A stretch of 29,913 bases of DNA from a virus (Duplodnaviria > Heunggongvirae > Uroviricota > Caudoviricetes). Each line of letters opens with the position of its first letter. The stretch's first letter is position 1. The stretch lies in IMG/VR virus record IMGVR_UViG_2724678986_000028; one strand, 5' to 3'. The notes under the pieces are model-generated. The model was given only the letters and a program-made list of their open reading frames with translations, was not told the DNA's origin and did not search any database. A program made the position numbers and the translations under genes. Shown piece by piece: positions 4,596-19,802 of the stretch.

Positions 4596-4985
4596 ATGAT
4601 TGACGCTCATGACTTCACAAGATGGGTGCGCACACAGGACACCCGTCTGGCTCCCATTCTTCGGGGATTATTTGATCTCTACATTCGTGGTCGTGACAAC
4701 AGAGCACGCACCACAAAACCGGAGAATGTGGATACCCTTTATTTCACAGTAGACGACTGCTACCGCGTGGACTTCACACCACACGGACTGGCGTTGCACT
4801 GCCTGACACCGCACGGCGAATCACTGCTGGCGTATTACGACTCCCCGGCCTCCGTATTTGCGGCAATGCTGGCGCATCGCACTGCTGGCGGGTGTGTCTC
4901 GCTGAGTGAATACACCGCTGAATTTAACCGCCTTTCCACCATCTTCTTGCAGGAGTGGCAGCGCGTGACGGGATACCAGCCATGA
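4596..4985 (+). CDS. Hypothetical protein immediately upstream of the replication gene
   Basis: 129-aa ORF; its stop overlaps the gpA start as ATGA. Confidence 0.5.
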   Translation: MIDAHDFTRWVRTQDTRLAPILRGLFDLYIRGRDNRARTTKPENVDTLYFTVDDCYRVDFTPHGLALHCLTPHGESLLAYYDSPASVFAAMLAHRTAGGCVSLSEYTAEFNRLSTIFLQEWQRVTGYQP

Positions 4986-7822
4986 GTGCGTTTGCATGGA
5001 GCTGGAATGAACCACGGCCAGCCATTGATCCGGCCAGATTTACGGAGCGCAGGCAGGAAACTGAAACCGACCTGCAACGCGCCATCCGTTACTACCTTGA
5101 GGCAAACAAAAGGGCACAGGAAGAACAGGAAGCGAAGGAGGAAGCCTTTTTCGCACAATCCACCGTGGGTAAAAAACTCATGGCATCCCTTGAGGAAGCC
5201 GGACAGCGTGAAAAGCTGGCACAAAGCATCATCAGCAAGCGTCAGGCAACAGAACAAGACCCGGTGGCCCGTGCTTTTGCCACACTGAAGGTGCTTCCCG
5301 TTTATCTGCGTGAACCTCTGAGCCGCCACCTCTCTTTTCTGCGCAAGAAGCAGGAAGCCGATCGTCAGAAAGGCAAAAAGAGCTGGCAGGCTGAACGCTA
5401 CGCGCGCGGAACCCTGCGCAAAATATTCGAACGTCTGGACCGCACCGACAGCCGCTGGCTGACACCGGGCTATCGCTCCCTTGCCGGACGCGAACGCCTG
5501 GACGATTTGCTTTACCTGCCGCAGCTCAACAAACACCAGATACAGACGCTGGCCACCATGACGGCGGCGATGTTCAGTGGCACTTTTGAAAAACTCTGCG
5601 ATGGCTTTGGCGCGACCGATGGCGAGCTGACCATGGATGTAACGCTGAAGGCGTATCAGATGCTGGCCCGCATGGCGTTACACCTGCACGCTATGCCTCC
5701 ACATTATGACGCTCTGACAACAGACAAAGACCGGAGGAATGAACCGGACACGGAGCTGCTGCCGGGCGCAATCCTTCGCCTGACCTGTGCGGAATGGTGG
5801 AAACGCAAACTGTGGCTGTTACGTTGCGAGTGGAGAGAAGAACAACTCCGCGCCGCCTGTCTGGTTTCCAGAAAAACATCACCCTATCTGAGCCAGGACG
5901 CGTTAAGCGAGTTTCGCGCACAGCGCGAGAAAACACGCGATTTCCTGAAAAGTTTCATGCTGGAAAACGAAGACGGGTTCACGATTGATCTCGAGACAGT
6001 GTATTACGCGGGAGTAAGTAACCCGATTCACCGTAAGGCAGAAATGATGGCCACCATGAAGGGGCTGGAACTTCTGGCCGAAGCCCGTGGCGACAGAGCG
6101 GTGTTTCTGACTGTCACCTGCCCGTCAAAATACCACGCCACAACAGAGAACGGTCATCCGAATCCCAAATGGAACGGGGCCACCATGCGCGACTCCAGCG
6201 ATTACCTGGTTAACACGTTTTTTGCGGCGGTCCGCAAGAAACTGAACCGCGACGGCCTGCGCTGGTATGGCATCCGCACGGTGGAGCCTCACCATGACGG
6301 CACCGTGCACTGGCATATGATGGTCTTTGCTCATCCGGAAGAAATCGACACCATTGTGTCCCACACCCGCGATATTGCCATTCAGGAAGACCGCCACGAG
6401 CTGGGCAATGATATTACTCCGCGCTTTAAGGTGGAGTATGTCGACGGCTCAAAAGGCACGCCAACCAGCTACATCGCCACCTACATCGGAAAGAACCTGG
6501 ACAGCCGCGCCGTGGATGGCATCGACCCGAAAACGGGCAAGCCACGCGTTGACCACGAAACCGGAAAATCAATGGCCGAGAGCGTGGAACGCGCCATCGG
6601 CTGGGCACGCCTTCACCGGGTCCGCCAGTTCCAGTTCTTTGGCATCCCCTCCCGTCAGGTATGGCGTGAACTCCGCCGCCTTGCCAGCCAGATGGCACGC
6701 AACCCGGAAGGCCCACAACGGCTGAAGGATGATGCAATGGATGCGGTACTCGCTGCCGCTGATGCCGGGTGTTTTGCCACCTACATTGAGAAACAGGGCG
6801 GCGTACTTGTTCCACGCAAAGACTACCTGATTCGCACCGCCTACGACCTCGCAGATGAGCTGAACGATTACGGCGAACAGAGCGTACAGATTTACGGGAT
6901 CTGGTCACCACTCATCGGGGAATCCTCCCGTGTGTGCACGCACCCGGATAACTGGAAGCTGGTAAGACGTAAACCGGAAGCGGAAGACAGCACCCGCGAA
7001 AATGGTTTTGACCTTCAGGGCGGCCCTGCCGCCCCTTGGACTCGTGGCAATAACTGTCCCCGTGTACAGGAAACGGACAACAACGGGACAGAACAGCCGG
7101 AAGAAAGGCCAGCACCGTGGCCGCAGCTTCCTGACGGCGTTGACGTGAATGAATGGATGCGCTCACTGAAACGGCACGAACGCCGGGCGCTGATGCGTTC
7201 GCTGCGTGACAAACAGGCAAAAAACAGCAGTGATGAAATGCAGAACTGGACACAGAGCCGCAAACAGCCACGGCCTTTGCCTGATAACCACGAGTTACTC
7301 GCTAAAGAATGGCGGGAGTCTGCTGAATCTCTCGGCCTGCATATCGGTGAACAGCAGATGCAGCACCTGTTACGGGGCGGCAGTCTGTACGTTGACGGCA
7401 GCATCATTGCACCGCAGGGATTTGAAATTGTACGCAAACCAGATACCCGCCCGGACAGCCGAATCACGCAACTCTGGCAGCGCCTGAGCCGTAATCACGG
7501 CGTAAGCAGCACGGAGATCCGCCATAACCCGGTCGCCAGCTATCTGGAACAGCTGGGGGCATCAGACCCCGAAGCCGCCGCACACCTGGCATCCACACTT
7601 CAGCAGGACCAGAACACCATGAAAACCCCCGTTACCGTGCTTTCTGACATGCTGCGCGCCATCCGTGACGCAGTGCACGCACAGAGAATCAGTGAAACCA
7701 CTGAACGCGCCCACCGCAAAGCAGACCTGCTGCGGGGTAGCCTGACCAGTGGAAACAAAAAACAGACAGAAACGGGACTCACAAATCCCGTAAATGAGCA
7801 AAAAACGTGCCGCGATATATGA
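4982..7822 (+). CDS. A: Rolling-circle replication initiator, P2 gpA family (HUH endonuclease)
   Basis: About 946 aa. HUH motif VHWHMMVF and paired-tyrosine motif SYIATYIGKN are visible. First ATG at 4982; the GTG at 4955 in the track has no usable SD. Confidence 0.85.
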   Translation: MSAFAWSWNEPRPAIDPARFTERRQETETDLQRAIRYYLEANKRAQEEQEAKEEAFFAQSTVGKKLMASLEEAGQREKLAQSIISKRQATEQDPVARAFATLKVLPVYLREPLSRHLSFLRKKQEADRQKGKKSWQAERYARGTLRKIFERLDRTDSRWLTPGYRSLAGRERLDDLLYLPQLNKHQIQTLATMTAAMFSGTFEKLCDGFGATDGELTMDVTLKAYQMLARMALHLHAMPPHYDALTTDKDRRNEPDTELLPGAILRLTCAEWWKRKLWLLRCEWREEQLRAACLVSRKTSPYLSQDALSEFRAQREKTRDFLKSFMLENEDGFTIDLETVYYAGVSNPIHRKAEMMATMKGLELLAEARGDRAVFLTVTCPSKYHATTENGHPNPKWNGATMRDSSDYLVNTFFAAVRKKLNRDGLRWYGIRTVEPHHDGTVHWHMMVFAHPEEIDTIVSHTRDIAIQEDRHELGNDITPRFKVEYVDGSKGTPTSYIATYIGKNLDSRAVDGIDPKTGKPRVDHETGKSMAESVERAIGWARLHRVRQFQFFGIPSRQVWRELRRLASQMARNPEGPQRLKDDAMDAVLAAADAGCFATYIEKQGGVLVPRKDYLIRTAYDLADELNDYGEQSVQIYGIWSPLIGESSRVCTHPDNWKLVRRKPEAEDSTRENGFDLQGGPAAPWTRGNNCPRVQETDNNGTEQPEERPAPWPQLPDGVDVNEWMRSLKRHERRALMRSLRDKQAKNSSDEMQNWTQSRKQPRPLPDNHELLAKEWRESAESLGLHIGEQQMQHLLRGGSLYVDGSIIAPQGFEIVRKPDTRPDSRITQLWQRLSRNHGVSSTEIRHNPVASYLEQLGASDPEAAAHLASTLQQDQNTMKTPVTVLSDMLRAIRDAVHAQRISETTERAHRKADLLRGSLTSGNKKQTETGLTNPVNEQKTCRDI

Positions 7823-7868
7823 AGCGCGCACAAAACAGGCAAAAGCGGGATTTAAAAATCCTGTAACC
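7760..7868. repeat. Imperfect direct repeat (two ~36-bp copies, each with an internal dyad) spanning the A 3' end and the parM leader
   Basis: Copy 1 at 7760-7795 (AAACAGACAGAAACGGGACTCACAAATCCCGTAAAT) and copy 2 at 7833-7868 (AAACAGGCAAAAGCGGGATTTAAAAATCCTGTAACC), about 27/36 identical. Each contains a CGGGA...TCCCG-type dyad. Confidence 0.5.
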
Positions 7869-7898
7869 GATTAATTAATCAACACAAGGAAAAGCGAC

Positions 7899-8858
7899 AT
7901 GAAAATTTGTATCGACGACGGCTCCACCAACATCAAGCTGGCGTGGACTGAGAACGGCGAACGCCGCAACGCCATCAGCCCGAACAGCTTCAAGTCGGAA
8001 TGGTCTGCGCCGTTCGGTGGCACGCAGCCCGCGAACTACATGCTTGATGGCGTGCGCTATGGTTTTGATCCGGTCAGCGATCGCTTTGTCCAGACGACCG
8101 ACACGCAATACCAGTACAGCGATGTGAATATAATTGCCATTCATCACGCGCTGGTCAAATCAGGCATCACACCACAGGAAGTGGATGTGGTTGTCACCCT
8201 GCCACTGAGCGAGTATTTCGATACAAACGCACAGCCGGACATGGCCAACATCAACCGCAAAAAAGCGAACGTCATGCGCCCGGTGGAGTACCAGAACGGC
8301 GAAGCATTCACTATCCGTAACGTACGGGTTATGCCTGAATCCATTCCGGCTGGCTTTAAGGCACTGGCTGACATGAGTCCGTTTGAATCCCTGCTGATTG
8401 TGGATTTGGGCGGAACCACTCTGGATGTGGCAAAGGTTCAGGGGCAACTGGCAGGTATCAGCCAGGTGTTTTGCGATCCACACGTGGGCGTTTCTCTGAT
8501 GGCCGATGCCGTACTGTCGGTGATGGCCACTAACGGTATGCGCACCAGTCACCACATCGCCAATACCATTATCGAACATCGCCATGATGAAGCCTGGCTG
8601 CGCCAGCACATCCACAATGACGCGCATTACGCCAGCCTGATGGCGGTTATTCGTGAAAAGGAAGAAACACTGAAACAACGCGTGATCCGCGCGCTGGCGG
8701 GTTTTTCGGGTTACGGGCGGGTGATGGTTGTCGGTGGAGGGGCGGAGATTGTGGCACCCGCTATCCGCGAAGCCTGCGGAGTTAATGCGACTTTCATCGC
8801 GGACGGGGTGCCACAGTTTGCTCTGGTTAATGGGCTGTACGCAATGGACAAGGAGTAA
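7899..8858 (+). CDS. parM: ParM/StbA-like actin-fold partition ATPase
   Basis: 319 aa. Actin-fold motifs IDDGSTNIKL (phosphate 1), IVDLGGTTLDV (phosphate 2) and VVGGGAE (adenosine). Collinear over its full length with plasmid R1 ParM as recalled. RBS AAGGA upstream. Confidence 0.85.
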   Translation: MKICIDDGSTNIKLAWTENGERRNAISPNSFKSEWSAPFGGTQPANYMLDGVRYGFDPVSDRFVQTTDTQYQYSDVNIIAIHHALVKSGITPQEVDVVVTLPLSEYFDTNAQPDMANINRKKANVMRPVEYQNGEAFTIRNVRVMPESIPAGFKALADMSPFESLLIVDLGGTTLDVAKVQGQLAGISQVFCDPHVGVSLMADAVLSVMATNGMRTSHHIANTIIEHRHDEAWLRQHIHNDAHYASLMAVIREKEETLKQRVIRALAGFSGYGRVMVVGGGAEIVAPAIREACGVNATFIADGVPQFALVNGLYAMDKE

Positions 8859-8862
8859 ACCA

Positions 8863-9174
8863 ATGACGACTCCAACCAGACGGATAAGTTTCTATCTGAA
8901 GCCCACCGCCGTCAAGAACGAAGGAGAAGCATGCGCCTGGCTGGACAGCCTTACACCAGAAGCCCGCAAAAGCGGCCAACGCGTGGCTTTTCTGGCCGGG
9001 CTGGCACTTCTGAAAATGAATCCGGCAGAGGCTTATCGACTGGCTGCATGGGCTGGTGATGAAGCGTTATCAGTGACACAAACCAGGACAGAACGCCCCG
9101 CATCACAGCCAGTATCAACCGCACAGATAACCAGTCAGATGGCCGGAAATATCCGGGCGTTATTTCCTGAATAA
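8863..9174 (+). CDS. parR: ParR/StbB-like centromere-binding adaptor
   Basis: 103 aa from ATG 8863, with AAGGAG 7 nt upstream (the track ORF from 8728 is over-extended). N-terminal RRISFYLKP...RVAFLAGLALL resembles the ParR RHH region; C-terminal NIRALFPE resembles the R1 ParR tail as recalled. Confidence 0.6.
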   Translation: MTTPTRRISFYLKPTAVKNEGEACAWLDSLTPEARKSGQRVAFLAGLALLKMNPAEAYRLAAWAGDEALSVTQTRTERPASQPVSTAQITSQMAGNIRALFPE

Positions 9175-9237: not shown

Positions 9238-9828
9238 ATGAGCGAAATCAACTATCAGGCATTACGTGAACGTTATTCACCTGTGCCAGTACCGAAATGC
9301 CCTATTTGCGGCGAGGAAATGTCAATTCAGCGAATATCTGGAGCACAGGTTGTTTATGCCTGCTCCGGTTATGGTGATGATGGAGATTTCAAAATTGGCC
9401 GAACTCTTGCCGACGAACATTATGAAAAATCACGCGTAACAGTGTTGGATGTCGGGGATCCTGAAGTATTGGCGCTACTTGATTGGCTGGAAACCAAAGA
9501 CAACCGAATCGCTGAACTGGAAAAAATCGCCACTGACTATGCACTTAAATTCCAGAAAGCACAGGACGCATTAAAGTATGCCGCTTTGCTGCATAGCAGG
9601 ACGGCGCAACAAACAAATAATTTTGCAGTATCGCTTCCGGACATAAGCGAATATTTCATTAATGACGTATTTCAGCCCTTGCGATACGAGCGGGATGTTG
9701 AAAGAGCCATCATAAAGGCTGGCGGAAAAGCATTGTGGCAGGAGAAACACGAGGACAGAACGCATCAGTCCTGCGATGTAAATCGTGGATGGTTTAGCCC
9801 ACTGACGACAGATAAAAATAACACCTGA
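9238..9828 (+). CDS. Hypothetical protein, Cys-containing N-terminus and central coiled-coil-like segment
   Basis: 196 aa; AAGGAG 9 nt upstream; N-terminal CPICGEEM...YACSGYG. The 3' half is AT-richer. No family assigned. Confidence 0.5.
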   Translation: MSEINYQALRERYSPVPVPKCPICGEEMSIQRISGAQVVYACSGYGDDGDFKIGRTLADEHYEKSRVTVLDVGDPEVLALLDWLETKDNRIAELEKIATDYALKFQKAQDALKYAALLHSRTAQQTNNFAVSLPDISEYFINDVFQPLRYERDVERAIIKAGGKALWQEKHEDRTHQSCDVNRGWFSPLTTDKNNT

Positions 9829-9840
9829 TCCCCCTCAAAC

Positions 9841-9866
9841 CAGGGCGATAATCGCGCATCGCCCTG
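9841..9866. repeat. Stem-loop CAGGGCGA-N10-TCGCCCTG, same arms as 9183-9200
   Basis: Identical 8-nt arms to the element upstream of the 196-aa gene; sits 12 nt after its stop. Confidence 0.5.
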
Positions 9867-9867
9867 C

Positions 9868-9901
9868 TGCACAATAGTGCACAAGTTTGCACAATTTTTT
9901 T
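9868..9901. repeat. Three TGCACAA iterons at exact 10-bp phasing followed by a T7 tract
   Basis: TGCACAA at 9868, 9878 and 9888, then TTTTTTT at 9895-9901; lies in the noncoding region upstream of the portal end. Confidence 0.5.
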
Positions 9902-10268
9902 GAACGACTTTTTACCCTTCCGGCCCGCATGGCGGCTGGATCCGTCAAGGATCCGTGCGTGCACAAAAAAACGCGCTTTTTCTGCGCGCAGGTGACGGGG
10001 GAACAGCCCGCGTTTCAGGGGGTAAATAGCATCCCCTGAACGATGTCGCAGCGACACAACAGAATGGCTGTATTTCTCACGCTGAGCGTGAAGAATACGT
10101 GAGGGATTCTGATTTGATGGGGTGAAAGGTAAGGCCGTCAAAATCGCACTGAGGCGGCGAGAACATGCAGTCAACGCGGTGGGATTGCGTAAGAGTCTGA
10201 CCGTCGATGGTGGCGATAAACTGGAAGGCGTCGTGAAATTATCTGACTGATACAGGAGCTGGAGAGTC

Positions 10269-10291
10269 GGGGCATAAATTTTTTATGCCCC
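10269..10291. repeat. Palindrome GGGGCATAAAtttTTTATGCCCC downstream of the portal gene stop
   Basis: Perfect 10-bp arms, 28 nt downstream of the Q stop on the minus strand. No flanking U tract, so terminator status is uncertain. Confidence 0.4.
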
Positions 10292-10318
10292 GGCGAAGCA
10301 GCAGACAAGCGAAGCGCG

Positions 10319-11365
10319 TCAGGATGTGGGCTGGGTGTCTAACAGTGCGTAAGGGTTAAAGCGGATCACCTCTTCGCCAAGCCAGTCATTGATGTGCTTC
10401 ATGGCCTCCATGACGGGCATCAGCTCGTTAATTGCGTAAACCCGCGCGGCCTTCTCCACATCACCAAACGCACTTTTTTCACCCGGCATCGCCCCCATCA
10501 GTTGCGGCGGAACGCGGTGCGCAGCCAGCACATCATCACGGGATGCCGCCTTAACATTCATGAACTCATCCTTTGCGGTGATCTGCTGGAACGGCAAAAT
10601 TTGCACCCCCTCTTTGCCCCCGTTGGGCGCATGAATGAGCACGTTTTTAAACGCACCACCACCACGCGCACCCTGTAGCGTTTCTTTCAGGGAGTCCATG
10701 CTTTCGCGGTTTACCTGCGCTGCACCGATGTAGATGATGCACCCGGCGTGGGATCCGTTGTCGTAATACAGTTTTCTGAACATGTCCGCCGAATGAGACA
10801 GGCTGGCCGAGAGTAATGCGCCGAGATATTCCGGCATGCCGTAGATTTCCTGGTTAATGTCCGGATTCATCAGGTGGCACACTTTGCCTGGGCGAAACTG
10901 AAACGCATCCTTGCCATCCTGCACATACCACCATGATTCAAGATCGCTTCCGCGTCGCATGTATTTCGCCAGGGCGTGCCGTAATTTAAGCGGTTCGCCG
11001 AGCATATTGCTTCGAAGCTCAAGGAATGCGTTACCGAACACAAACCAGTCCAGCGCCAGCGCCGAGAAATCCTGCCGGGAAAGCAGCGGGTGCGGGATGT
11101 AGCAACCGAGCAATACATTGCGCTTAAAGTAAAGCGCAGACTGATGCCAGGACGTTTGCCGGGCGGCTCTTGCCAGACCGTACCAGTCCACCGGGGTTTC
11201 ATACCACCGCCCGTTATCAGCACAGTACATATTGTCCAGCAGGTCATGCCCGGTCAGGCGATAAGGACCATCAAATGTGAATGCACTGAGCGATGATTCT
11301 TTCCTGAGCGCATCAGCGAGATCAATGCGTGAACTCATGCGCACTTTTTTATTTTTTCTGCTCAT
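10319..11365 (-). CDS. Q: Portal protein, P2 gpQ family
   Basis: 348 aa; position (after cos, before terminase), size and 1-nt stop/start overlap with gpP match the P2 Q-P arrangement. Confidence 0.85.
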   Translation of the reverse strand: MSRKNKKVRMSSRIDLADALRKESSLSAFTFDGPYRLTGHDLLDNMYCADNGRWYETPVDWYGLARAARQTSWHQSALYFKRNVLLGCYIPHPLLSRQDFSALALDWFVFGNAFLELRSNMLGEPLKLRHALAKYMRRGSDLESWWYVQDGKDAFQFRPGKVCHLMNPDINQEIYGMPEYLGALLSASLSHSADMFRKLYYDNGSHAGCIIYIGAAQVNRESMDSLKETLQGARGGGAFKNVLIHAPNGGKEGVQILPFQQITAKDEFMNVKAASRDDVLAAHRVPPQLMGAMPGEKSAFGDVEKAARVYAINELMPVMEAMKHINDWLGEEVIRFNPYALLDTQPTS

Positions 11366-17944: not shown

Positions 17945-18086
17945 CCAACCCACATGGGGAAACCTCGGAATATGGGGCGACCGCCTTCTGGATGCACTGG
18001 AAACCTGTAACGCGGATAAACGGGCCATTGCTGAACTGGATAAGAGAATAGCCGAACTGACACACCAGACGGGAGTAACACAATGA
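17805..18086 (+). CDS. o-spanin lipoprotein (LysC/Rz1-like), overlapped architecture
   Basis: Starts in the +1 frame inside the i-spanin and extends beyond it; lipobox LLTGC; Pro-rich mature part. An alternative GTG start at 17775 has a GGAGAGG RBS. Confidence 0.6.
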   Translation: MNAPTLCLTLVLLTGCAGTQNAPRPAPSVRLIPQTLTMPVTPPPFPDQPTWGNLGIWGDRLLDALETCNADKRAIAELDKRIAELTHQTGVTQ

Positions 18087-19802
18087 CCAGTAAGAACTTT
18101 GCACTGATTACAGCCATGACACAGGCTGAACTGACTCAAAAGGTGAATGAACATCTTGCGAAAGGGTGGCATCTTCAGGGGGAGACGCGGGTTGCCTACG
18201 AACCCGGCACCCCGTGGTATCTAATGCAGGCAATGGTGGCCGATGGCACTACAGACATCTCACCTGATTCCCCCCAGCACGGCAGCGTGCCGGAGTGGTA
18301 TTACGTGGTGGTACTTGCTGGTCAATCCAATGCCATGTCATATGGTGAGGGAATGCCGCTGCCGGATTCTTACGATGCGCCCCACCCACGCATTAAGCAA
18401 CTGGCCCGTCGCAACACAGTGACTCCCGGTGGTAAAGCATGCGCATTTAACGACATCATTCCGGCAGATCACTGCCTGCATGATGTTCAGGATATGAGCG
18501 CACTGAATCACCCGAATGCAGACCTGAGCAAAGGGCAGTATGGCTGTGTCGGACAGGGCTTGCATATTGCCAAACGCCTGTTGCCTTACATTCCACAGAA
18601 TGCCGGGATTTTACTGGTTCCATGCTGTCGTGGTGGTTCGGCATTCACCCAGGGCGCGGAGGGGACATTCAGCGAGTCCACAGGAGCCAGTCAGGATTCG
18701 GCTCGCTGGGGTGTGGGTAAACCTTTATATCAGGACCTGATTTTGCGCACGAAGGCCGCATTGCAGAAAAACCCAAAAAACATGCTGCTGGCCGTATGCT
18801 GGATGCAGGGCGAATTTGACATGAGCGCCGCTACGTACTCACAGCAACCTCCGCTGTTTGCGGCCATGCTGAAACAGTTTCGTGCGGACATTACCGAGTT
18901 TAACACGCAGTGTCATGGAGGCAGAGCGGCAAGTGTGCCATGGATTTGTGGTGACACGACGTATTACTGGAAAAACACCTACGGCACGCAGTACGACACC
19001 ATTTACGGGGCGTACAAAAACAGGGAGAGCGACAACGTTTTCTTTGTGCCATTCCTGACCGATGGTAGTGGCAACAATACCTCCACCAACGCACCAACGG
19101 AAGATCCGGATGCTGCAAGTGAGGGATATTACGGTTCGGCATCCCGAACGAACAAAAACTGGGTATCATCAAATCGCCAGACGCATTTCAGTTCATGGGC
19201 GCGCNNNNNNNNNNNNNNNNNNNNNNNNNNNNNNNNNNNNNNNNNNNNNNNNNNNNNNNNNNNNNNNNNNNNNNNNNNNNNNNNNNNNNNNNNNNNNNNN
19301 NNNNNNNNNNNNNNNNNNNNNNNNNNNNNNNNNNNNNNNNNNNNNNNNNNNNNNNNNNNNNNNNNNNNNNNNNNNNNNNNNNNNNNNNNNNNNNNNACTG
19401 ACCAACAATCAGTTCGGTCTGGGAATTTATCTGTATACCGATGTAGCGTTACCTGACGTCGTGGCGATGACCGGGACTGGTAACCCGTTCCTGATGTCGT
19501 TCTTCACCCAGACCACAGACGGCAAACTGAATCTGATGCATCACAAGAAAGCAGGAAACACAAAGTTGGGCGAGTTCGGGAATTACAGTAACGACTGGCA
19601 GACGCTGGAGCTGGTGTTCACCGCCGGCAGTGCCACGGTTACTCCGAAACTGAATGGAGTGGCTGGCCCGGCATTCCAGGTCATAAAAGACAGTCTGACA
19701 CTGGGGCTGAATGCACTGACGCTGACGGATATTACCAAAAATGCAACGTATGGCGTTGAGATAGAAAGTCTGGTGCTGGAAATAAATAGTCCTGCAGCGT
19801 AA
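18083..19802 (+). CDS. DUF1737 + SASA/SGNH-type carbohydrate esterase (NanS-p-like), interrupted by an assembly gap
   Basis: ATG 18083 overlaps the o-spanin stop (ATGA). N-terminal MTSKNFALITAMTQAELTQKVNEHLAKGWHLQGE (DUF1737-like) is followed by VVVLAGQSNAMSYGEG (the GQSNM-type serine motif of sialate O-acetylesterase-family hydrolases). The 5' part runs 18083-19204 and the 3' part 19397-19802 in another frame, because the N run has arbitrary length. Confidence 0.6.
19205..19396. other. Assembly gap (192 N)
   Basis: Uninterrupted run of n; the true length and sequence are unknown. Confidence 0.95.

Follow-up and report, generated by a model that had tools for sequence, protein, structure and literature searches.

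The stretch of DNA analysed here, a window of 29,913 nucleotides (IMG/VR virus record IMGVR_UViG_2724678986_000028), belongs by nucleotide similarity and gene order to the genus Xuanwuvirus (family Peduoviridae), as a P88-like prophage of the P2 type. Between its replication gene A and its portal gene it carries a plasmid-type partition cassette, in which the genes parM and parR follow a pair of palindromic repeats that make a plausible candidate centromere (parC). The cassette is conserved backbone of one phage lineage and not swappable hotspot cargo, and in complete Escherichia coli genomes it is found in the chromosome almost everywhere. We consider it fairly probable that it works as a ParMRC segrosome whose substrate is the phage genome in its transient circular form, after infection or induction, and the module appears as a fixed part of the replication module in one P2-like phage clade. 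An earlier note, made from the letters of this DNA, had described the two open reading frames (ORFs) as a ParM/ParR-like pair; at the level of sequence this observation is confirmed far beyond chance. Both the observation and the idea of a phage-plasmid that goes with it were already published in 2022.

ParM, ParR and the candidate centromere

The elements of the cassette, in the order in which they lie in the window, are the following.

7756-7793, no strand assigned: candidate parC repeat 1, with the palindrome CGGGACTCACAAATCCCG at 7773-7790; member of a 38-nt direct repeat family, within the last codons of gene A
7829-7866, no strand assigned: candidate parC repeat 2, with the palindrome CGGGATTTAAAAATCCTG at 7846-7863; same 38-nt direct repeat family, 73 bp from repeat 1
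7880-7905, no strand assigned: weak, partial third copy of the repeat's A-rich left flank (CAACACAAGGAAAAGCG), at 73% identity, overlapping the ribosome-binding site and start codon of parM
7899-8858, + strand: parM, actin-fold ATPase of 319 amino acids (aa)
8863-9174, + strand: parR, 103 aa, directly 3' of parM
8863-9057, + strand: parR codons 1-65, DNA-binding domain, predicted ribbon-helix-helix (RHH)
9058-9138, + strand: parR codons 66-92, hypervariable linker, predicted disordered
9139-9174, + strand: parR codons 93-103 and stop, conserved C-terminal tail AGNIRALFPE

The parM product matches StbA_N (PF06406, 3.7e-82) and the ParM C-terminal domain (PF21523, 1.3e-68) in Pfam, and in a phmmer search of all PDB chains it hits ParM of plasmid R1 (1mwk and others, 1.2e-92, residues 2-316). 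A BLASTP comparison with an R1-type ParM, taken from a plasmid locus, gave 46% identity over 318 aa, which is the full length of the protein. The nucleotide-binding motifs are the same as those of R1 (phosphate-1 DDGSTN, phosphate-2 DLGGTT and adenosine GGGAE), and the stretches conserved between the two proteins are DDGSTNIKL, MPESIPAG, DLGGTTLD and GGGAE. The three signatures from which the ORF had first been called a ParM (IDDGSTNIKL, IVDLGGTTLDV and VVGGGAE) are all present in the 319-aa product. R1 ParM forms filaments. The gene is under strong purifying selection, with a ratio of nonsynonymous to synonymous substitution rates (dN/dS) of about 0.06 among eight alleles and of 0.065 against a Hafnia form at a synonymous difference (pS) of 0.42. 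A search for NCBIfam matches at the equivalog level returned none for ParM or ParR. We also noticed that in phage 503458 (NC_049341.1) parM matches as four pieces and is annotated as two "partition protein" coding sequences, so that the gene is disrupted there.

The parR product belongs to Plasmid_stab_B (PF10784, 3.1e-23), the family that also contains R1 ParR/StbB (2.6e-30), and shares 31% identity with R1 ParR across its first 67 residues. The R1 ParR query is 100% identical to the gene adjoining parM in a plasmid collection (more than 1000 records at 99% identity or above). Together with a shared tail motif this bears out the ParR-like assignment of the second ORF, and both ORFs match the ParM/ParR families in the Pfam profile searches that the earlier note had proposed as a check. 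A profile built from 16 ParR alleles reaches ParR of pB171 (2JD3) marginally, with E = 0.011 over residues 8-71; with the single ParR sequence, a phmmer search of the PDB gave no match.

Selective constraint divides ParR into three regimes. The DNA-binding domain, in which the strand RRISFYLKP is invariant, has a ratio of nonsynonymous to synonymous differences (pN/pS) of 0.18. The linker shows a pN/pS of 0.78 and indels in the alignments, and the AlphaFold2 (AF2) model gives residues 65-85 a predicted local distance difference test score (pLDDT) below 50. The tail is the most constrained ParR segment, with a pN/pS of 0.05, and a helix is predicted at residues 87-100. Written as (K/G)NI(R/Q)xLFP(E/D), the tail aligns with KKNAMKLIN of R1 ParR; its Asn is found in all 9 of the ParRs compared, which come from phages, an integrative and conjugative element (ICE), the plasmid prophage D6 and R1, and a motif xxN[AI]xxLFP is common to the R1, D6 and ICE proteins. 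We take the R1 tail to be the ParM-binding helix of the ParM-ParR peptide structure 4A62, and by analogy the tail of the window ParR is presumed to be a ParM-binding helix too. Such a distribution of constraint is the pattern that should be expected of a working adaptor between DNA and filament.

Identity among the diverse ParR alleles spans 97% to 52%. Incompatibility-driven change of specificity was considered as the source of this diversity and was rejected, because the linker holds the variation, the strand that reads the DNA does not vary, and phages whose ParRs are 51% identical have the same upstream DNA. P88-type ParRs, of 101-106 aa, do not contain an internal conserved segment ("IRHLISSVLPE" or "NILRSLFPKE") that is present in the longer ParRs of R1, D6, Serratia, Enterobacter, Plesiomonas and the ICE, and have the hypervariable linker instead. 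BLAST detected no relatives of this ParR on true plasmids.

Candidate parC repeats 1 and 2 are 79% identical to each other. The palindrome pattern occurs at two sites only in the 29.9 kb, and none of 100 shuffles reaches the observed count. The 139 bp upstream of parM (7760-7898), which the earlier note had counted as part of the cassette, hold both candidate palindromes. In a Hafnia relative the palindromes and their 73-bp spacing are kept though the tail of gene A differs, with the A ORF ending inside the palindrome of repeat 1, and because the repeats persist there despite a different end of the A reading frame, the constraint on them acts on the DNA. More distant relatives also have repeats in this place: Plesiomonas carries two GCGGGACAAC...ACCC repeats 72 bp apart, and Serratia and Enterobacter have, upstream of parM, inverted repeats of 14-20 nt that lie 26-28 nt apart and are built on (C/T)GGGAAC. 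From their pairing, symmetry and conservation, it is plausible that the palindromic repeats are the centromere of the system.

Lineage, expression context and chromosomal residence

The features that frame the cassette in the window are the following.

2465-2493, + strand: best sigma-70-like site of this strand, TTGACA-17-CAAAAT, from a consensus scan; beside the CI-like repressor gene, as placed from annotated relatives
4982-7822, + strand: gene A, P2-type rolling-circle replication endonuclease (PF05840, 8.9e-130), with the start taken from the RefSeq annotation of an identical chromosomal copy
9238-9828, + strand: Ead/Ea22-like gene with an N-terminal zinc-ribbon-like CxxC pair (PF13935, 1.1e-31)
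9877-9901, + strand: first terminator-like hairpin with a long T run after the cassette (GTGCACAAGTTTGCAC AATTTTTTT), from a consensus scan; 3' of the Ead gene
10319-11365, - strand: portal gene (gpQ homologue), the far edge of the A-Q interval, from annotated relatives

Over the cassette region the window shares 99.5% identity with Xuanwuvirus P884B11, and 94-97% with P88, PhiR44_2 and the Citrobacter phage PhiSM. The P2-type gene order int-CI-cox...A / Q-P-O-N-M is confirmed in annotated copies, and an identical copy adjoins yecA in the chromosome of E. coli 2013C-4538, where the order is integrase, repressor, early genes, gene A, parM, parR, the Ead/Ea22-like gene and then portal, terminase and capsid. 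With gpA upstream and P2-type portal and terminase genes as the downstream flank, the placement of the cassette in the A-to-cos slot of a P2-type prophage, as first proposed, is well founded; the gpA-gpQ interval is the tin/old hotspot of P2 (Rousset et al., PMC9122126).

What did not hold is the description of the cassette as accessory cargo of this slot. It is present in 14 of 14 phage records with the P88 type of A gene, which are the same 14 that have ParM and which include all four species of Xuanwuvirus recognised by the International Committee on Taxonomy of Viruses. Across 5426 complete E. coli genomes, parM was found at 1442 places and the lineage-specific extension of gene A at 1533 (about 94%); the other copies of the extension, about 6%, are without a parM match. 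The carriers amount to 1302-1371 of these genomes, about a quarter, and include O157:H7, O104:H4, O26 and ST131 strains. Variable DNA begins after parR, with the Ead/Ea22-like gene in the window and unrelated genes in P88, 705R2 and 520873, and a query that includes the Ead/Ea22-like gene matches 234 of 1368 genomes at a coverage of at least 80%. This gene is the truly variable A-Q hotspot cargo of the phage.

The extension itself comprises the C-terminal ~240 aa of gene A (nt ~7088-7822); it has no Pfam match and is specific to the P88-like lineage, other P2-like phages aligning at nt 5785-7087 only. It adjoins the par cassette, its last codons overlapping candidate parC repeat 1, and in Hafnia it is 52-72% identical in DNA and has a different end.

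A scan of genome contigs for ParM returned three near-identical loci only, and the diverged relatives were obtained by a search for homologous proteins followed by their encoding contigs. In this search of 5.8 billion proteins, ParM identities stand at 91% or above and then drop to 62%. The diverged forms whose context was sampled lie in the gpA-portal slot of P2-like prophages of Hafnia (62%), Plesiomonas (62%), Serratia (58%) and Enterobacter (54%), and a closer Hafnia form (94%) occupies the same slot; 6 of 6 sampled members of the ParM sub-clade, from P2-like prophages of five genera, are found between gpA and the portal gene. In an unbootstrapped neighbour-joining tree the P2-like ParMs cluster apart from those of R1, D6, a plasmid copy and an ICE-borne copy of Dickeya. 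Because relatives in other genera share the slot and cluster in the tree, the association of gene A with parMR is old and has been maintained.

The two par genes are contiguous with gene A, have the same orientation and lie 3' of it in all sampled lineages. The site at 2465-2493, the only strong promoter-like one on the + strand, is the probable early rightward promoter, reading cox...A-parM-parR. In consensus scans, neither the stretch from gene A to parM nor that between the two palindromes shows a sigma-70-like promoter, and on the + strand the hairpin at 9877 is the first terminator-like one followed by a long T run. This layout suggests that parMR are distal early genes, which would be expressed at the time when the genome replicates as a circle. 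The R1 arrangement, in which parC contains a promoter, finds no support, there being no promoter-like site between the palindromes.

In the E. coli genomes, parM is chromosomal at 1440 places and on a plasmid at 2, the gene A extension at 1531 and 2, and a 12.4-kb phage query at 1785 and 2, respectively. A wider query gave 43 "plasmid" places, which are not plasmid copies of this parM or gene A; the query with parM or the A extension gives 2. By these counts the cassette departs from the low-copy-plasmid residence that goes with type II ParMRC systems, and its phages from the extrachromosomal maintenance that goes with phage-plasmids, with one exception, a circular record of 34.4 kb. In line with integration, PhiSM inserts at pdxB in K-12 (PhiSM paper), all annotated relatives have a tyrosine integrase, and their only annotated replication gene is the rolling-circle initiator gpA. 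No plasmid-type replication or copy-control module was seen in the relatives, as judged from their annotation and not from an exhaustive replicon search.

The exception, NZ_CP148288.1, is a circular "plasmid" record of 34,461 bp from a cat isolate of E. coli (strain Z1323PEC0009) and the sole phage-sized one in PLSDB. It is a complete P88-like phage with int, hok/gef, com/dam, parMR and all structural genes, and a phage 100% identical to it is integrated in the chromosome of the human isolate Z1323HEC0067 of the same study series. Either a true episome or excised DNA that was assembled as a circle could lie behind this record. In Plesiomonas shigelloides, the relative lies on a contig of 32,167 bp (WEKF01000002.1, assembly GCA_009183595.1), which is about phage-sized and ends ~140 nt past the integrase gene; this contig could be an episomal or excised form. 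Stable plasmid maintenance is unlikely and at best rare.

Three further observations concern the DNA outside the cassette. Synteny with P2 would put cos at 9830-10318; a presumed P2 cos sequence has no match in the window, even with 3 mismatches allowed. A hairpin at 10268-10292 with perfect 11-nt arms (CGGGGCATAAA-TTT-TTTATGCCCCG), ~27 bp from the stop-codon end of the portal gene (10319), is probably the terminator that ends the leftward late operon. Between the lysis and tail-completion genes, a large ORF (18083-19456) is overlapped by another (19062-19802). The counterpart of the large ORF in a related chromosomal copy is named "DUF6645 domain-containing protein" (625 aa) by the Prokaryotic Genome Annotation Pipeline (PGAP), and in the window's ORF list this gene appears split into two overlapping frames, which may reflect a frameshift or a third cargo site.

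Proposed mechanism and rival explanations

What the analysis shows is the homology, with its intact motifs, the selective constraint, the conservation of the repeats, the fixation in the lineage and the location in the chromosome, and on these our explanation builds. In the mechanism that we propose, ParR dimers would bind the two palindromic repeats upstream of parM, the conserved ParR tail would catch the ends of ATP-ParM filaments, and the growing filaments would push copies of the circular phage genome apart. The substrate would be the extrachromosomal circle, as it exists after infection and before integration, and again after excision, during gpA replication as monomeric circles. That this transient circle is the substrate is the most likely case, because the prophage is almost always integrated and parMR look like distal early genes. 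The phage would benefit if both daughter cells inherit a copy, or if replicating and packaging templates are spread through the cell, and the result would be better stability of lysogenisation, a better replication yield, or both, with no need for long-term maintenance as a plasmid. Binding to the palindromes, the timing of expression and the benefit to the phage are the parts that we infer. More tentatively, and with a confidence that falls just short of even, we extend the proposal to a P2-like clade (Escherichia, Citrobacter, Hafnia, Plesiomonas, Serratia and Enterobacter) that would keep its own actin-like cytoskeleton for the phage cycle, either to segregate unintegrated genomes during the lysis-lysogeny decision or carrier state or to space the monomeric replication circles from which P2-type phages are packaged.

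Several points weigh against a segrosome for the circular genome. The candidate parC has only two palindromes (four half-sites) against the ten iterons of R1, and the palindromes could be mere operators, or sites for another protein. The RHH fold of ParR is predicted from sequence profiles, and the AF2 monomer model, made from a shallow alignment, is of low confidence (pLDDT 56). Promoter and terminator calls come from consensus scans only, so that expression in the lysogen is possible. A lytic burst or integration may be over too soon for segregation to make a difference. The mechanism also takes as its background that P2 DNA replicates in the form of monomeric circles, which serve as the packaging substrate. 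Finally, no functional test of the cassette was found in the P88 paper, a functional defence selection, a 2026 P2-hotspot study or general literature searches.

The rival closest to the published idea (Rousset et al. 2022) is that P88-like phages can, by means of the cassette, live on over many generations in the form of low-copy plasmid prophages instead of integrating. The earlier note had offered such an episome as one of its alternatives. The circular P88-like record and the phage-sized Plesiomonas contig that ends just past int are consistent with it, as is the fact that the only other phage ParM detectable by tblastn in 50,697 records belongs to D6, a plasmid prophage. Against these stand the chromosomal and plasmid counts of all three queries, 1440 to 2 for parM itself, by which an episome is weakly supported; the integrase in all copies, the pdxB insertion of PhiSM and gpA as the only annotated replicon point the same way. 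The circular record, moreover, has its twin integrated in a sister isolate, and spontaneous excision of an inducible prophage can yield a circular assembly. We therefore regard long-term plasmid life as unlikely.

A function in conflict, that is, partition incompatibility with resident ParMRC plasmids or related phages, or exclusion and defence as the earlier note had suggested, would fit a gpA-gpQ slot rich in anti-phage systems and the range of ParR alleles, and is in our judgement very unlikely. PADLOC gave 0 hits for ParM, ParR and the Ead-like gene, the cassette is core, being fixed in the lineage, and does not vary as swapped defence cargo does, and the main texts of two large P2-hotspot defence studies contain no defence role or test for the cassette. 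The diversity of ParR is confined to the near-neutral linker, with the DNA-reading strand and the tail invariant and no sign of diversifying specificity. A cross-reaction with IncF plasmids looks unlikely because ParR has no BLAST-detectable plasmid relatives and the site differs from the R1 iterons. We think it very improbable that the cassette is a regulatory remnant in which the main role of ParR is that of a transcriptional repressor bound to the palindromes, for example to tune the end of the early operon, with ParM dispensable or in an unrelated ATPase role. R1 ParR is established as both autorepressor and adaptor, and two palindromes look more like operators than like a long centromere; however, ParM is the most constrained gene of the pair, the constraint on the ParR tail makes no sense without an interaction between ParM and ParR, and no promoter-like site was found between the palindromes.

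Known partition systems and significance

The cassette resembles ParMRC (StbA/StbB) of R1/R100 in its order of repeats, parM and parR, in a ParM alike over its full length with the same nucleotide motifs, and in a ParR that shares its Pfam family and is homologous in both the N-terminal domain and the C-terminal tail. It differs in residing on an integrating phage, chromosomal at 1440 of the 1442 places, in having no promoter of its own that we could detect, and in a shorter ParR without the "NILRSLFPKE"-type segment. The R1 centromere consists of two blocks of five 11-bp direct iterons around a promoter, whereas the window has two palindromes of 16-18 bp, 73 bp apart.

The system had been seen before. 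Rousset et al. 2022 (Cell Host Microbe; PMC9122126) analysed 18,150 gpA-gpQ loci and noted a putative partitioning system in one sentence; StbA + Plasmid_stab_B arrangements are listed in their tables, and about a quarter of the P2-like prophages of E. coli have them. This is the same system, treated there as hotspot content and with plasmid maintenance suggested; the present analysis adds its fixation in the lineage, its presence in other genera, the purifying selection on it and its near-absence from plasmids. In hundreds of genomes the RefSeq/PGAP names are "plasmid segregation protein ParM" and "plasmid partitioning/stability family protein", PHROGs families exist for both products, and the PhiSM paper lists the gene as fitness cargo only.

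The closest phage counterpart outside the P2-like group is StbA/StbB of D6, a P1-like plasmid prophage, with 47.5% ParM identity and a PF10784 ParR; its annotators had already noted the likeness to P88 StbA. D6 differs in being a true plasmid prophage of 91 kb with TCTCA-type upstream iterons, and it falls outside the P2-like ParM clade in the neighbour-joining tree.

The premise of the earlier note that an integrating phage does not need a segrosome is contradicted by two precedents. In SXT/R391 ICEs, srpMRC is co-expressed with the functions for excision and replication and was shown to make loss of the transient circular form less frequent (Carraro et al. 2015; PMC4489591). It is likewise a ParMRC-type system on a normally chromosomal element, but the element is an ICE and not a phage, SrpM is distant from R1 ParM, SrpR has no recognisable domain, and for srpMRC the function has been demonstrated. 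In the Corynebacterium glutamicum prophage CGP3, AlpAC/alpS couples the circular phage DNA to actin-like filaments, efficient replication of this DNA requires it, its adaptor binds sites upstream of the operon, and the genes are induced early (Donovan et al. 2015; PMC4446434). This too is an integrated prophage that encodes an actin-like filament protein and a DNA-binding adaptor, from another actin-like family and in another host phylum. A ParM/ParR pair of the same families was also noticed on a Dickeya chromosome of 4.2 Mb (CM001975.1; positions 6001-7373 of the locus examined), with a ParM 49% identical, by TraG_N and TraU conjugation genes and an integrase; the element resembles an ICE that has, like SXT/R391, a type II partition system.

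For the mining of defence systems, the findings mean that the StbA/StbB pair in this hotspot is to be parsed as conserved backbone of a lineage and not as swappable cargo. About one E. coli genome in four carries this plasmid-style cassette of an integrating phage, and since P88 and PhiSM plate on K-12, the coliphage family is easy to manipulate. If the proposed role is true, the principle of active partition in brief episomal phases, as known from SXT/R391 ICEs and CGP3, would extend to a very common family of coliphages, and this would be the first demonstration of a ParMRC system at work for an integrating tailed phage of Gram-negative bacteria.

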